Part shown: positions 18,647 through 64,000 of the stretch, in pieces | Numbering within the stretch: the stretch's first letter is position 1 | Layout: the number at the start of each line of letters is the position of its first letter | Assembly: GCA_951406725.2 (NCBI GenBank) | Contig: OX597831.1 | Coordinates: 22,010,001-22,074,000 of the forward strand | Source: Octopus vulgaris | Lineage: Eukaryota | Direction of reading: 5' to 3' | Length of the DNA stretch: 64,000 nt | Notes under the pieces: generated by a model | Databases searched by the model: none | Seen by the model: the letters and a program-made list of their open reading frames with translations, nothing else | Told to the model about the DNA's origin: nothing | Position numbers and translations under genes: made by a program

Positions 18647-19384
18647 GATAGAATTTCTCGAAAGAAATTCTATCAATGGCCAGCATATCAAAAAATACCT
18701 TTAAAGGTTAAATTTATAAACAATTTATGAGTAAGGGCAAATGAAAACATTTCTAATGCCAAATTATTCCGAAGATAGACGCTACGTCAATAACCATGTA
18801 ATTTATCACTACAAGCACGTGTTTCAAAGAAAGCCGACAGAAATTTCTAAAAAAATCCCGTTATTACCATATCGGACTCGATTTCAGAGTTAGTTCATAA
18901 GAACCTTCTCTTCATCAGTGATAAATGCGGCAAAGAAATAAGTGGAATACTTACTTATATCCATGGAAGAAACGAGCACTAAGACACGATGTTAATTTAA
19001 TAGTGTTCACTTCCGGACTCTCTCACTTTACGAGAGCTTTTCGGTTCGAATCGCACGTGTCTCGAGGTGTGTTAGAGAATTTCTACTTTGGATATATTTG
19101 GGGTACTTAGTTGTACTTGTGGCTTAGTGCTCGCTTCGTCCATGGGTATAGGTAAGTATTTCACTTAATTCTTTGCCGCATTTATCACTGATGAAGAGAA
19201 GGTTCTTATGAACTAACTCTGAAATCAGGTCCGATATGGTAATAACGGAATTTTTTTAGAAATTTCTGTCGGCTTTCTTTGAAAAACGTGCCTGTAGTGA
19301 TAAATTACATAGTTATTGACGTAGCGTCTATTTTCGGCATATTTTGGCATTAGAAATTTTTTCTTTTGCCCTTACTTATAAATT
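18641..19384 (-). mobile_element. PLE terminal-repeat fold-back within (TA)n with a hammerhead-like motif in each arm
   Basis: Arms 18722-18988 / 19117-19384 plus an ~80-bp tail; tatca-CTGATGA-agag..ctct-GAAA-tcga(g)-TC-cgata at 18869-18923 (-) and a variant at 19183-19236 (+). Confidence 0.8.
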
Positions 19385-19842
19385 ATATATATATATAGAT
19401 ATATATATATATAATGCAAAAACGAATTTCTGTGTGTCAGTTTGTCACACTTTAACCCCACCCACCTCTCTCACTTTCCAATAACACTTTTACTGTTCAT
19501 TTTAACAGAAAAGTATGGATTTACATACCGATTTACTGAACGCTATAAATAATGTTTGAAAACACGTTACATGATATAACGTCAGAAGTAGCCTGTAGAA
19601 AGAGGAGGGATATTTTTTTAGTGAATGTTAAATATAAAAAGAAAATTAATGTTTAAATTATATATAATGATAGAGATTACTTATATGAACTAAAGGTGTG
19701 TTTTTGCCAATGTTTACATCGGTATGCACGAAGAGAAGATTACATTGTCTTACACCATTTATTCCTTTGGAATGATATCAGTGAAATCTACGAAACATGT
19801 GTCGGAAGTAAAAGTATTTGAATTATACCTGCGTTAAACTCC

Positions 19843-33647: not shown

Positions 33648-34191
33648 TTGCCCTGGCAGTGACTCTCGTGGCTTCTGATCTTAACTGATTGGAAGTGTTA
33701 TCATGTACATTGTTTCGTCTTGGTATAAAAAATGGGCTACAGCAAATATTCTGCTCAATACCACAGATTTGCTCGTCAGTTGTTTGACCTTAACTAGTTG
33801 ATCATGTCCCTTAGTGGCTGACGATATGTGCATCTCTGATCACGAGCAGAAGTAGTGGGGGAGCATCATAGCCGTGTGTTGAAAGGAAGTCTTTGGGGTT
33901 TGGATAATTCACATCTGGAAACAAGTGTGGCTCGTTGAACATCCTTAAACAATCCTTACTCAGGGACCATTTGAGCAGGATGGGCTGCTCGACCTGAAGA
34001 AAATTCTAACTGGGCCCCACCTGCAAGGTCATGTGCTGTTTATCTTGATATGAGATCACCATGTCGCGCACATTTGGTTGTGATGCATGTGCCTAGTGTA
34101 CCCTTATCAGACGGGTAGTCATGATGGTTATACTGGGCTTTGTATATTTTACACGTGTGTCACTTTGATGGCATGCTCTGCTCTCTCACTC
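33645..34191 (+). mobile_element. ~550-bp non-coding retroposon (family E) between (AAT)n arrays
   Basis: Homologous to 34940-35447 (-), 34530-34690 (-) and 56647-56760 (-); 3' end ctctctcactc(AAT)n. Confidence 0.8.
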
Positions 34192-34236
<45 letters not shown>

Positions 34237-34847
34237 TAATAATAATAATAATAATGATAATAATAATAATAATAGTTATTGTTATTATAATGATAGTCGC
34301 AGTAGTTCGGCATGTCACTGGATTCCTCAAGTGGACAGAGAAGTTAAATGTGATGGAAAGTTCCCAGAACTGTAAAGAAATCCTTCATTTTGCAGCTAGT
34401 TACGGTAAACATCTCCGGAGTGGTCGTTCAACAAATTGGCATAAATTTCGTATAGAAGACAACCAAAATCCGACGACTTGCCCCTGATACTACCGTTTAC
34501 AGTTATTGTTATCAGTTTTTTGCATCACATTGCCACTAAGGGAACTCTTCAACTGGTTAAGATCAAGCTACTGACAAGCAAATCTGTGATATTGCGCAGA
34601 ATAATTATTGTAACCCTTCCTTTATACCAAGACAAAACATTTACATAGCACTTCTTATCAGTTGAAACCAAAAGCCATGAGAGCCATGGATCTTTGCATT
34701 TCTATTTTCGACGATGCCTTCAGGATTGTGGTCGTACCAATTTTTTTGCTCAGTCAAGTCCTTACTTGTTGCAAATTGTCCAATTGACAAGCCTCGCTAT
34801 ATTGTCGTGGCGTCTCTCATATTCCTTCTGGGTTGTTGTTATTGTTA

Positions 34848-34911
<64 letters not shown>

Positions 34912-34939
34912 CATTATTATTATTATTACCATTATTATT

Positions 34940-35447
34940 GAGTGAGAGAGCAGTGCATACCATCAAAGTGACACTGGAGTAGAAATGTACGAAACCCAAT
35001 ATACCCAACCCGACTACCCGTCTGATAAAGGTACACCAGGCACATGCATCACAACCATATGTGCACTATCTCATAACAAGATAAACTGCGCAGGACGTGG
35101 CAGTTAGAATTTTCTTCAGATCGAGTAGCCCATTCCACTCAAAAGGTCCCTGAATGAGAGTTGCTTAAGGATGTTGAATGAAGCACCCATGCTTCCACGG
35201 GTGAATTATTCAAACCTCAAAGAATTCCTCCAAATACTTGGCTATGATGCTCCCCCATTACTTCTGCTCGTGATCAGAGATGCACATATCGTCAGCCACT
35301 AAGGGACATGATCAACCGGTTAAGGTCAAACAACTGACAAGCGCGAATCTATTGAGAAGAATAGTTGCTTATACCAAGACGAAACATCATGATATTTCCG
35401 ATCAGTTAAGATCAGAAGCCATGAGAGCCAGTACCTGGCACTGCGTC
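34940..35447 (-). mobile_element. Family E copy
   Basis: Reverse complement of 33645-34191; 3' end abuts (ATT)n. Confidence 0.8.
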
Positions 35448-52150: not shown

Positions 52151-52706
52151 TTGGGTTGTCCGGAAATTTTGTGCCGATTTATAGTAGCTTACCTTTCGAC
52201 TTGGTTGAGTCTATAAATTTAGGATTTGACTACACCTCAATTTAGAGCACAGTTTAAGCTATCTCTACGTGGAAGAAGGTTTATGTTCCAATAACCTGTG
52301 TTAATTTTGTAACCCTTTGAAATGGAAGATAAGAAAGTTCATTTTCGGTACTTGATGCTTTGGGAACCAGACAAAAATTGCTGCAGCTCGGCTGGGACGT
52401 GTTATCCCACCCTCCATATTCACCACATATATTGCTGCTTCGGATTTCCACTTATTCAGCTCTCTGCAGAATAGTCTTAATGGTAAAAGTTTCAATTGCT
52501 TGGATGACGTGAAAATATACCTTGATGAATTCATTGTCATGAAACCACCTCAATTCTGGGAAGAGGGTATTTTCAAGTTAAAGGAAAGATGGAGACACAT
52601 TGTGCAACGAATGGTTCATATTTGGTTGATTACAAATGTAATGGCAAGTATTTATTGACCTTTTTCTTTCCTTTAAAAATCAGCATGAACTTTCCGGACA
52701 ACCCAA
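52151..52706 (+). mobile_element. Internally deleted mariner (MITE-sized) with both TIRs and TA duplication
   Basis: TA|ttgggttgtccggaaa...tttccggacaacccaa|TA; HPPYSPHIAASDFHLFSSLQNSL. Confidence 0.92.
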
Positions 52707-58081: not shown

Positions 58082-58490
58082 TTTAAGCCAAACGGGATAA
58101 AAAATTTTACGTTTATCTCGTTTGGCTTAACAGCCCTTCTTGTTTGTGTTACTGTTATTCTCCGTGTCCTGTCTTTTACTGTTTATATTTTGTACTGTCG
58201 TTACTGTCCTGTTTTTGTTACCATTTTTACCCCTCCGCAAAAAAATCTCAAATTTTATTTAATTTGATTTTCGCGGGAAGGAAATTTTCATTGAAGTCAT
58301 GTATCGCCTTGACCTTCGAAACGTGGAATAGATGAAATTAAGGCGACTGAAGAAGGGGAATTTTCCTTGTTTTGTATGTCCTGCACTCTATTTTTTCGCT
58401 GTTTCAAAAAATGTTCATTTCCTTGGTTTTGTGTTTATGTTTTCGTTTCTCATTGTGTTCGACGTTTTTTTGGTATCCTGTACCCAAATA
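58082..58490 (+). mobile_element. Interspersed repeat carrying a permuted hammerhead-like motif (copy 1)
   Basis: Homologous over ~370 bp to the reverse complement of 63350-63712; 19-bp hairpin at the 5' edge. Confidence 0.8.
58298..58358 (+). ncRNA. Non-circularly permuted hammerhead-like RNA, copy 1
   Basis: catg-TA-tcgcctt ga ccttc-GAAA-cgtg [14 nt] aaggcga-CTGAAGA-agggg. Confidence 0.7.
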
Positions 58491-59896
58491 TGCATGTATA
58501 TATACACGTAGAGGTAGGTACGTACATATATGTATGTATATATGCATGTGTTTTATTTATTTATTAATGTGGTGCCCCAGGATTTATATATATGGACGTT
58601 TGTATGCATTTATATATACACATACACACACATACAAATATATATATATATATAATATGATATAATATAACATAATATGATATCATATAAACATAATCAT
58701 TTTGCAGGTGCTCTCATCAGTTCTAAGTAAAAAGGGGGATGATTACGAAATAACTGGAAGCCTTTATGTCATTATTAGAAAAAATTGTGGAAACTGACTT
58801 TGAACATTGGGTTGCAGTTACCAGAACTGAAAAATATATATGGCTGGAAAGAGAAGGAGTGTTGTGAAGGAAACAACCTTTTCAATCCATTAAAATATAT
58901 TTGGGACGTATTCGACCTGTAAAAAAGACCATTTTCATTACACTGTGCTGTGATTTGTTACCTATTTGTGACGAAAGAATAAGTAGCTTGAAATGCATAT
59001 ATCAATCCGTAGAGGAAATTACGAAATGGCTTTCGTATTTAACATCCTTTGCCTAAAGCGCCAATTTTTCTCCATGGGAAACTGCTGTGAAAATGGTCTT
59101 TTATCGATCAAATATGCACCGAAACTATTTAAACTGGTCGAAAAGTTTGCTTTGGTGTATATATATATATATATATAATAATAATAAATATTAGGGAATA
59201 AATCCAAATTTACAAGGAAAAATCAGATTTAAGATTGAATCCAATTTTATAGTAAAATATTATATTATATCAAATTAGAGACAAAACCACTATTATGCAA
59301 ATCAAACAAAGAAAGACCTAAGCCAATACATAAAATAATTTATATAAATTAAAATTTAACATATGATAGAACTGGTAGTTTACCGGTAAAGCACTTCACT
59401 TTCCTTTCTCAGCGTTCGTAGGGTATTTGCTTAATAAGAAATACGGGAGATGGAAGATACGAGAATGTTTATTGGTAACTACAATTGTTTCGAACCATCC
59501 TCACGGGTGGGGAATCTGGTTTAGGTGCATCCGTTGGTGTAGGTGTGTCTCCTCAGGTGACAATATGCATCTCATTAAAATAACATCTGTTCCTCAAGAT
59601 TTCTTCTTGGTGTATGTATACAACAACAGTAGCAAATTAAAGGATACAGCTTCATTATTATATAAGACCAGTAACAAATATCATATGCAAAAAGAAACAA
59701 ATACACAATACGACAAAAACTAGATATCACGGTTAGTAGATATAGATGTACAAACGCCCTCGCTTACGTAGTCTGGCGCAAGAACACTCGCTCGTACAAA
59801 CATACACGAATATATAACCATAGGTCGATTCGTATTTGGTGCACATACGCTCACACGGCGAATTAAATACGTATGAATAAATCCATTGCCTAAAAG

Positions 59897-61012: not shown

Positions 61013-62293
61013 CGAGGTAGTATCAAAAGGTTCCCGAACTAGTTACCTTTAGTAAAATAATAACTTAAAATAGTAATTACCTATATATTTAACTTCTTCA
61101 AAATGGTCATCCTGTGCAGCAAAACACCGGTCCCAGAGTTTCCCCCACTTTTGGAATCCAGCCTGGAAGTCGTTTTCCGTATGCGAGTTGTGGACTATAT
61201 GCGATTCGCTCTGGATCTTGATAATGGTGTTTAACCGACAAATATAGGCGTAGGAGTGGCTATGTAGTAAGTAGCTTGCTTACCAACCATATGGTTCTGG
61301 GTTCAGTCCCACTGCGTGGCACCTTGGGCAAGTGTTTTCTACTATAGCCTCGGGCCGACCAAAGCTTGTGAGTAGGTTTGGTAGACGGAAACTGAAAAAA
61401 GCCCGTCGTATATATGTATATGTTTATATATATGTGTGTGTATATGTTTGTGTGTCTGTTTGTCCCCGCAACATCGCTTGACAACCGATGCTGGTGTGTT
61501 TACGTCCCCGTAACATAGCGGTTCGGCGAAAGAGATCGATAGAATAAGTACTAGGCTTACAAAGAATAAGTCCTGGGTCGATTTGCTCGACTGAAGGCGG
61601 TGCTCCAGCATGGCCGCAGTCAAATGACTGAAACAAGTAAAAGAATAATAGAATAAAAGAACTTTTGAGCCGCATTTTCATCTTGAGGAAGAGATGGAAG
61701 TCCTCAGCGCTAAGTCTATCGAAAAGGGCGGATGCGGATGCGGAAGTGACACCATGTTGTTTTTGACGTGAAACTCACGGGTGAGGAGAGCTCAGTGACA
61801 GGAGGCATTGTCGTCGTGAAGAATCTAATTCTTCGCGTTCCACAGATCCGTTGGCTTTCGCCGAATGTCCGGCCTGAAATGCTTCAAACCTTCGTTGATT
61901 ATTCTTCGCCGATCCTCATGCACTGCTAACGAATTTTCTTCACATTTCCGTGGCTGGTCCTCCAGACCGCTCATCGTCTTCCAAGAACGTTCCTCCGTTT
62001 TTGAATTGCCCGTACAACTCGAGATATTGCGCACGACCTAATGCCTCGTCACCGTGAGCTTTCCAAAGCATGCTCGATGTCTCTGTAACAGACTTCCCGA
62101 GTTTAACGCAAAATTTCACTTTGGCTCTTTTCTTCCTACTTCCTGTCTATGACAAAAATCGCCGACTACAACATATATGTGATAACAAAAACATAAATTT
62201 TACAACTTGTGAGGTAAACACAGCGCTGTCACTCAACCGTGTGCTGTCATCTATTGGCGCGCTACAGAACTAGAAACGTTTTGATACACTTCG
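61013..62293 (-). mobile_element. Degenerate mariner with a nested SINE
   Basis: TIR-like cgaggtagtatcaaaaggttc / gaaacgttttgatacacttcg. Confidence 0.65.
61245..61645 (+). mobile_element. SINE family A, full length
   Basis: Complete head, internal microsatellite and tail. Confidence 0.9.
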
Positions 62294-63312: not shown

Positions 63313-63349
<37 letters not shown>

Positions 63350-63353
<4 letters not shown>

Positions 63354-63712
63354 TACAGGATACCACAAATAAACGGAGAACACAACGAGAAACGAAAACA
63401 TAAAATCAAACAAGGAAACAGACATTTTTTAACAACCAAAAAACAGAGTACAGGACAAACAATACAAGGAAAATTCCCCTTCATCAGCTGCCCCTGAGTC
63501 GACTCAATGCGTGTTTCGAAGGTAAGGGCAGAACACGGCCAGACCGAAACAATCCTTCCTGCAAAAGGAATTAAATAAAATTATTTTACAGAGGGGTAAA
63601 ACAAGTGACAAGAACAGGACGTAAAAGCAATACAAATGAAGAAAAAACAGTACAAATAAAGAATAACAGGACAAGGAAACCAACAATAAGGGGTTTTTTA
63701 TGCCTAGACGGT
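63350..63712 (-). mobile_element. Interspersed repeat carrying a permuted hammerhead-like motif (copy 2); 3' end on (TA)n
   Basis: Homologous to 58120-58490. Confidence 0.8.
63476..63537 (-). ncRNA. Non-circularly permuted hammerhead-like RNA, copy 2
   Basis: cgtg-TT-ctgccctt a ccttc-GAAA-cacg [14 nt] aggggcag-CTGATGA-agggg. Confidence 0.7.
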
Positions 63713-64000
63713 GGAAAAATTAGTTAGAACACATGTGAAAAATCGGCTTGCGAAAGACAGAGAAGTCGATGTATGCTTGTTGAAAGCACGAGCTGAAAGA
63801 AAGTTTTAGTAGCACTCCGGTCAACGGCCAGAGAGAGGTGGAGGAGGAGGAGGAGAGAGAGAGGAGGGAAAAGAAACCAGAAAGGGTGAAAAATAAGAAG
63901 GAGAGAGACAAGTAGAGAGGAAGACAGACAGGTAGGGAGGAAAGGTCAAGTAAAGAGTAAGAGTGCACACACACACACACACACACATGTGATAAAAAAA

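Follow-up and report, generated by a model that had tools for sequence, protein, structure and literature searches.

The six permutations of the hammerhead ribozyme, written here as the order of the core blocks S (UH), G (GAAA) and C (CUGAnGA), assume that the junction between A9 and G10.1 takes no more than 1-2 nt, and under the rule for block C, CUGAnGA is followed by a stem II strand (Eckert et al. 2023, PMC10085705). Type SGC, represented by HRIMA-1 and its variants, cleaves at 0.007-0.19 per min and is known from metatranscriptome contigs only, and type CSG comprises 2 unique sequences from soil metagenome DNA, both of which cleave in vitro (PMC10085705). One type-GCS candidate excepted, no such RNA was reported from the genomes of known organisms (PMC10085705). 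The search descriptors, as given in the accessible part of that work, demand CUGAUGAG or CUGAUGAUG (PMC10085705).

Among Penelope-like elements (PLEs), Naiads are described in the accessible part of Craig et al. 2021 (PMC8557442) as having no canonical hammerheads and a preference for (TA)n; annotation of the motif there is limited to "core" or "half core", and in eight cases, Naiad_Ovul included, a "half core" is separated by 35-50 nt from its counterpart. The same part lists 5' truncation, tandem and inverted copies or 5' pieces, and (TA)n sites as PLE features. The animal retrozymes of Li et al. 2026 are described with type I models only in the portion of the preprint available (bioRxiv 10.64898/2026.07.22.740005). 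In literature coverage that extended to neither most subscription papers nor bioRxiv supplements, types SGC and CSG appeared only in Eckert et al. 2023 and papers citing it, and the same coverage contained no hammerhead assigned to Naiads and no open A9/G10.1 junction.

Here we describe two copies of a predicted hammerhead in a 64-kb stretch of Octopus vulgaris DNA, C18:22010001-22074000 (the window). We consider it likely that they are hammerheads of the kind found in Naiad 3' UTRs, carried by a non-autonomous Penelope-like element and predicted to act with A9 not joined to G10.1. This explanation is based on sequence, covariation, position and strand, all of which are observed. Judged from sequence, the feature is real, its ribozyme class and block order are known, and its predicted connectivity and its host family are new. 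The preliminary description of this DNA had recognized a hammerhead core in a noncircular order and called for a check of its novelty. The order is indeed S-G-C, but that order alone is not new because it equals published type SGC (PMC10085705); the connectivity and the host family were not found in the literature.

Copy 1 spans 58277-58353 on the forward strand, from G10.1 to A9, as located by a descriptor and by reading the sequence. It opens with a detached stem II 5' strand, GAAGG (58277-58281, the first G being G10.1; partner 58313-58317), and continues with the 5' strand of a fourth helix, P4, identified by covariation (58286-58291; partner 58332-58337). Block S (58298-58310) consists of the stem III 5' strand, U16.1 (58302), A17 (58303) and a stem I strand (58304-58310), and the predicted cut lies between 58303 and 58304. 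Block G (58313-58325) contains the stem II 3' strand CCUUC, GAAA (58318-58321) and the stem III 3' strand. Block C (58340-58353), here probably without a stem II strand, comprises a stem I strand (58340-58346) and CUGAAGA (58347-58353). A small hairpin of about -3 kcal/mol (58354-58367) lies 3' of A9 and contains GGGG, an alternative stem II strand.

Copy 2, located in the same way, occupies 63481-63558 on the minus strand. Its stem II joins 63558-63554 with 63522-63518, its stem I joins 63531-63524 with 63495-63488, and its core consists of U16.1 (63533), U17 (63532), GAAA (63517-63514) and CUGAUGA (63487-63481), with the predicted cut between 63532 and 63531. P4 is weakened in this copy, with about 3-4 pairs as read from the sequence. 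The two copies align at 74% across about 320 nt. Both read as they had been given in the preliminary description, which placed the motif at 58298-58358; it begins about 21 nt earlier, at 58277, and correspondingly at 63558 in copy 2.

The core (CUGAnGA, GAAA and UH) is complete in both window copies, with the pairs G10.1-C11.1 and A15.1-U16.1 and with covarying stems I, II and III, stem II being formed through the upstream strand. A descriptor of core, stems I and III and S-G-C order has exactly 2 matches in the 64 kb, namely copies 1 and 2, versus 0.05 loose matches per shuffle and 0 strict ones in 100 dinucleotide shuffles of the window. Neither copy contains CUGAUGAG or CUGAUGAUG, and an Rfam search of the 64-kb window returned 0 matches, in line with the expectation that standard descriptors would miss the motif. 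Rfam types I-III (circular order C-G-S, at the gathering score) were likewise not found in 20 Naiad-like loci searched, 3 of which carry the motif. Pseudoknot-free folding of both copies is unremarkable (z about -0.2). Core deviations within subfamilies number 5/330 in subfamily A versus 77/2670 elsewhere and 5/330 in subfamily B versus 110/2820 elsewhere, which is weak evidence, the sample consisting of top-scoring copies; among these top-scoring copies, core and stem II are intact in 21/30 of subfamily A and 20/30 of subfamily B.

The strand preceding GAAA probably has its main stem II partner in the upstream strand 58277-58281 and not in the downstream GGGG. CCUUC and upstream GAAGG form 5 Watson-Crick pairs (about -8.7 kcal/mol), compared with about -4.1 kcal/mol for the CUUC/GGGG stem considered earlier. 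That stem II is the weak point of the motif was thus correctly anticipated, but CUUC/GGGG is probably not its main form, since the upstream pairing is the stronger and the only one that holds across Naiads. The hairpin after the core, regarded earlier as a competitor, is compatible with a fold in which stem II is formed upstream. In these elements, the upstream partner is a G-initiated strand 18-44 nt 5' of U16.1. P4, which the three-stem fold proposed initially had overlooked, begins 0-4 nt after it, and its 3' side pairs just before the block C stem I strand. This is the position of the helix that links stem I to stem II in published SGC and CSG ribozymes.

Covariation across subfamilies bears out the pairing of stems I and III, in which 6/7 and 4/5 pairs, respectively, change on both sides (12 sequences). 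In the window lineage, 80% of P4 cells are paired and 3/5 pairs change on both sides. For the four-helix model as a whole, 16/22 pairs in the lineage change on both sides, a value reached by 0/500 shuffles, and slid controls gave 1-4 pairs. Covariation of the upstream stem II within the window lineage comes from one sequence alone (L062:995-1091), a distant sibling of the window family. L062 together with L051:518-611, L063:2505-2597, L089 and L149:3109-3203 represents two further repeat families of this genome that have the four-helix fold with stem II sequences of their own. Across distant families, MAFFT could not align the upstream strand, and anchored counts were used instead. Among 18 family representatives chosen because they have the upstream stem, the G10.1-C11.1 pair never varies and every pair at positions 2-5 is Watson-Crick, with 3-4 pair types per position (single-sequence shuffle p 0.005-0.13); in the canonical stem II register, the first position pairs in 8/18. 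A descriptor blind to stem II gave 86 matches in this genome, of which 65 have at least 5 upstream Watson-Crick pairs, and none has more than 3 downstream.

The same fold is present in Naiads. Naiad_Ovul and the consensus preceding it read S-G-C at their 3' ends in the accessible published consensi, and the Naiad_Ovul-type motif has 714 matches in this genome. A scan of 60 RT-centered loci, several of them overlapping, placed the motif downstream of Naiad RT relics at L134, L142, L148, L156, L174 and L183; relatives of this type of RT have an N-terminal GIY-YIG domain, CxC and DKA. The Naiad RTs here are decayed, and two protein searches covering part of this genome turned up no intact Naiad. 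Among the 54 published Naiad consensi, inspection of the accessible supplement by eye showed the four-helix SGC fold in at least 10, of which two are from octopus, three from Acropora and five from supplement parts 8, 9, 12, 12 and 19; at least 6, in parts 13-16, have type CSG. Species of unnamed consensi were assigned from file order. The fold is imperfect in one squid consensus, and in the bivalve part of the same material it was not seen by eye.

A scan of Naiad-like metagenome loci covered the best 80 of 440 confirmed loci on both strands, in the orders SGC and CSG, with core and stems I and III only. The scan is blind to stem II, and circularity is therefore avoided in the stem II counts. 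It returned 13 matches, all of them sense and outside the ORF: 12 lie in 3' flanks and the remaining one in a 5' flank. All 10 SGC matches (9 distinct) among these best 80 of 440 loci have 5-6 upstream Watson-Crick pairs and 0-1 canonical pairs; hence the ribozyme would start at G10.1 and end at A9. Scanning the same best 80 of 440 loci for all six orders at a score of at least 14 gave the same 13 matches and no further order, and at a four-helix score of at least 20 there were 11 real matches and none in 20 shuffles. An antisense match within the ORF of L222 (score 19) was taken as chance. An earlier metagenome scan with the octopus RT fragment alone produced 502 pattern matches and 0 confirmed loci; an alignment scan succeeded instead.

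The motif is not universal in Naiads, because 67 of the best 80 of 440 loci had no match (at least 300 nt of 3' flank is present in 59/80) and because two large Naiad-like RT clades (L209-L257, from a quick tree only) yielded neither a CUGAnGA motif nor an Rfam match in flanks of up to 4 kb. These clades may use another 3' RNA element. Type CSG occurs in Naiads at L224, L244 and in nematode consensi. At L266:3000-3110 (partially also L265), a type CSG motif in a Naiad 3' UTR has 23 nt, with two small hairpins, between A9 and G10.1, and this is a natural intermediate towards the open form. As a side observation, PF00443 (ubiquitin C-terminal hydrolase) was detected in 9/40 Naiad-like proteins (P0026, P0027, P0029, P0030, P0032, P0033, P0037, P0038 and P0039).

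In comparison with published type SGC, the window motif shares the S-G-C order, the short S-to-G linker, all core bases and the helix that joins the ends of stems I and II, represented here by P4 and weak in copy 2. It differs in the stem II strand, which comes after CUGAnGA there but probably upstream of block S here (PMC10085705). With type CSG it has in common the cyclic order and the joining helix, and the UUAA linker and one-G spacer of CSG, as far as the accessible part of that work displays them, are like those of many Naiad examples; by contrast, the chain of CSG is opened where stem III meets the joining helix and not at A9/G10.1 (PMC10085705). The two soil-DNA CSG ribozymes (Supplementary Figure 10, accessible in part, PMC10085705) may be Naiad 3' UTRs. 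The PK hammerhead (PDB 8YDC) likewise has helix II as a pseudoknot and a fourth helix but, according to the accessible part of the report, a standard core order and an intact A9-G10.1 link (PMC11300833).

Three other explanations have to be weighed against this reading. The active form in the window lineage could be an ordinary type SGC ribozyme with an extra A after A9 and a GGGG/CUUC stem II, the upstream strand pairing with a 3' tract or switching folds. The downstream stem can be paired in 12/12 lineage sequences and shows two one-sided changes and one two-sided change; published SGC and PLE hammerheads usually have an extra base at the A9 junction; and the helix between the upstream strand and the 3' UUUCC tract is stable (-8 to -14 kcal/mol). 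In addition, G8-A9-A-G-G can pair with CCUUC, perfectly over 5 bp in 5/8 sequences tested, which would be an inactive form. Window copies may thus switch or misfold, given these competing pairings. We nevertheless regard the ordinary type SGC as unlikely. Only 2/4 of its downstream pairs are Watson-Crick, its score was reached by 47/500 shuffles, and a -3 slide pairs 96% of cells. A block C stem II strand 0-2 nt after A9, weakly possible in the window lineage, is found in 0/10 metagenome SGC matches (best 80 of 440 loci), where this form is impossible, as it is in the L051, L063 and L149 families. Moreover, P4 comes directly after the upstream strand, just as in published SGC and CSG ribozymes the stem II strand is succeeded by the joining helix.

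Less probable again is a genuine four-helix fold that has no useful cleavage activity and is kept for protein or RT binding or needs a protein cofactor. PLE hammerheads are often slow or protein-dependent, cleavage was dispensable in vitro for an Anolis Poseidon element, and many Naiad-like loci have spread without the motif. Yet the whole catalytic set and the four helices are kept together from ctenophores to octopus, H is never G in 18/18 UH sites (although the descriptor requires this), and the closed CSG form of the fold cleaves in vitro (PMC10085705).

The positions of 5' truncations also lean against a noncleaving fold. Among 29 unselected copies of the lineage, 15 reach far upstream and 14 break within -60 to +43 of the predicted cut; of these 14, 12 begin 0 to +21 after the cut and 2 within the 60 nt that precede it (p about 0.001, post hoc). 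As support for cleavage, this pattern is suggestive. The excess is absent in Naiad_Ovul-type copies (4/9, p 0.5; the samples for the truncation test were 29 and 31 copies), and it could also reflect RT stalling at the structure.

Completion of the core in trans between two tandem units, as in minimal PLE hammerheads, is highly improbable: although tandem arrays occur and dimer action is known for PLE hammerheads, the four helices can all form within about 70-95 nt of one copy, so that the multimer raised as an alternative in the preliminary description is not needed, there is no palindromic short stem III, and in families lacking a G after A9 a second unit would supply none.

In the preferred reading, with A9 and G10.1 unjoined, a single hairpin would be built from P4 and stem III, and the cut site would sit in its loop together with one strand each of stems I and II. 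Onto this loop the 5' tail would fold back to form stem II, with G10.1-C11.1 as its first pair, and the 3' tail would fold back to form stem I and bring in CUGAnGA. The chain would thus start at G10.1 and end at A9, which amounts to the published CSG/SGC fold with its opening at a different place. The crystal structure has A9 paired with G12 beside G10.1-C11.1, with G12 and the G8 2'-OH as the catalytic groups. The core would presumably survive without the A9-G10.1 linkage, none of the catalytic groups being that linkage; G10.1-C11.1 would stack on the A9-G12 pair with no covalent link, and cleavage after H17 would follow ordinary hammerhead chemistry. Junctions at A9/G10.1 form a series, with one extra base in CChMVd, PLE and HRIMA-1, 23 nt in L266, and the open form.

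An acceptor-like UUUUGCAG (63559-63566, minus strand) ends directly before G10.1 in subfamilies B, C and E but not in most of A, and donor-like GUAAG occurs in unit tails (L273, L047), an arrangement that resembles the pLTR intron abutting the Drosophila Penelope hammerhead. We considered whether splicing might restore the A9-G10.1 link and rejected this, as A9 is not followed by a donor and the acceptor-like AG is missing from most of subfamily A.

Both copies lie in an ORF-less Penelope-like repeat, so that the repeat context suggested at the outset holds. The first is a 5'-truncated copy of subfamily A (58112-58568, forward strand; boundaries common with the top genomic matches, and flanks), abutted by a short inverted fragment (58083-58111, minus strand) that resembles the 5' part of the element (82% inverted match, 58130-58083). 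The second is a subfamily B copy (63314-63966, minus strand; 92% to the subfamily B unit) with a CT-rich upstream part. A full unit measures about 830 bp and has no ORF; L273 contains a trimer of 832-bp units, 99.9% identical, with a partial unit first and the tail at internal junctions. A 19-nt pattern of the core and its 3' side has at least 6,052 exact matches in the 2.8-Gb genome, compared with 0 for the reverse control, and subfamily patterns have 941 (copy 1) and 501 (copy 2) matches. There are at least 6 subfamilies with different stems I and III. Copies are often 5'-truncated, inverted or tandem and located in (TA)n; (TA)5 lies downstream in 29/30 unselected copies, the element's own 3' part also being TA-rich. 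Another subfamily A copy lies on the minus strand about 5 kb past the window end (L280:6218-6669), and copies appear clustered.

With Naiads, as described in the accessible part of PMC8557442, the window element shares (TA)n insertion, partial tandem copies, inverted pieces, a tail and the 3' UTR fold; it differs in lacking an ORF and any Naiad DNA similarity beyond the fold. The Naiad ORF, with N-terminal GIY-YIG, CxC, DKA and RT, is present in elements with the same fold. With non-LTR retrozymes it shares units that lack an ORF, occur singly or in tandem and contain one hammerhead apiece, as in the L273 trimer, and these are PLE-dependent in the retrozymes; but retrozymes are defined by type I hammerheads, while the window order is S-G-C, and circular RNA has been shown there, compared with sequence alone here (PMC7229834 and bioRxiv 10.64898/2026.07.22.740005, accessible parts). 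We classify the window element as a non-autonomous PLE. Its anatomy (partial tandems, variable 5' ends and a lack of consistent terminal signals) led us to reject readings as a SINE, a Helitron-associated element or an LTR element. Tandem arrays might be cut once per unit into monomers of about 830 nt, as in non-LTR retrozymes, and such monomers might be reinserted at (TA)n by a Penelope-like reverse transcriptase, possibly via circles as for retrozymes. Two runs of partial protein searches of the genome found no RT locus ending in the window family, and no window-family copy joined to an ORF was found at the loci examined in this genome.

A Neptune-like PLE with long open frames could be the mobilizer. 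One such element (L301:2840-5981 and L302; G000:C21, C6) has DKG, a C-terminal GIY-YIG domain, 515-bp pseudo-LTRs and a CT-rich 3' UTR, and it contains a minimal type I hammerhead with U at core position 6.

More broadly, it appears reasonably likely that many Naiads, from ctenophores to cephalopods and in protist-rich metagenomes, carry an active hammerhead opened at A9/G10.1, which would be a seventh natural connectivity. The open, CSG and 23-nt-insert forms would then belong to a single rearranged family. Such a family would account for the "missing" Naiad ribozymes, place noncircular permutations in animal genomes, of which this one holds thousands of copies, and probably also explain the orphan CSG ribozymes of soil DNA. 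If true, this would overturn the rule that CUGAnGA and its stem II strand form one uninterruptible block, add a connectivity to the best-studied small ribozyme, and answer the stated puzzle of Naiads without the hammerhead that other Penelope-like elements have. Animal genomes would contain abundant noncircular permutations that escape current descriptors and Rfam. Junctions of 0, 1 and 23 nt and open junctions would provide natural intermediates for the evolution of such rewiring, and a separate stem II strand would offer a new place to split or control a ribozyme.

Elsewhere in the window, segments at 52356-52658 (forward strand) and 61424-61774 (minus strand) are what we take to be fragments resembling mariner transposase C-termini. 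The window also contains two inverted repeat pairs, at 18709-19397 (279 nt, 92%) and at 33771-35342 (242 nt, 86%).
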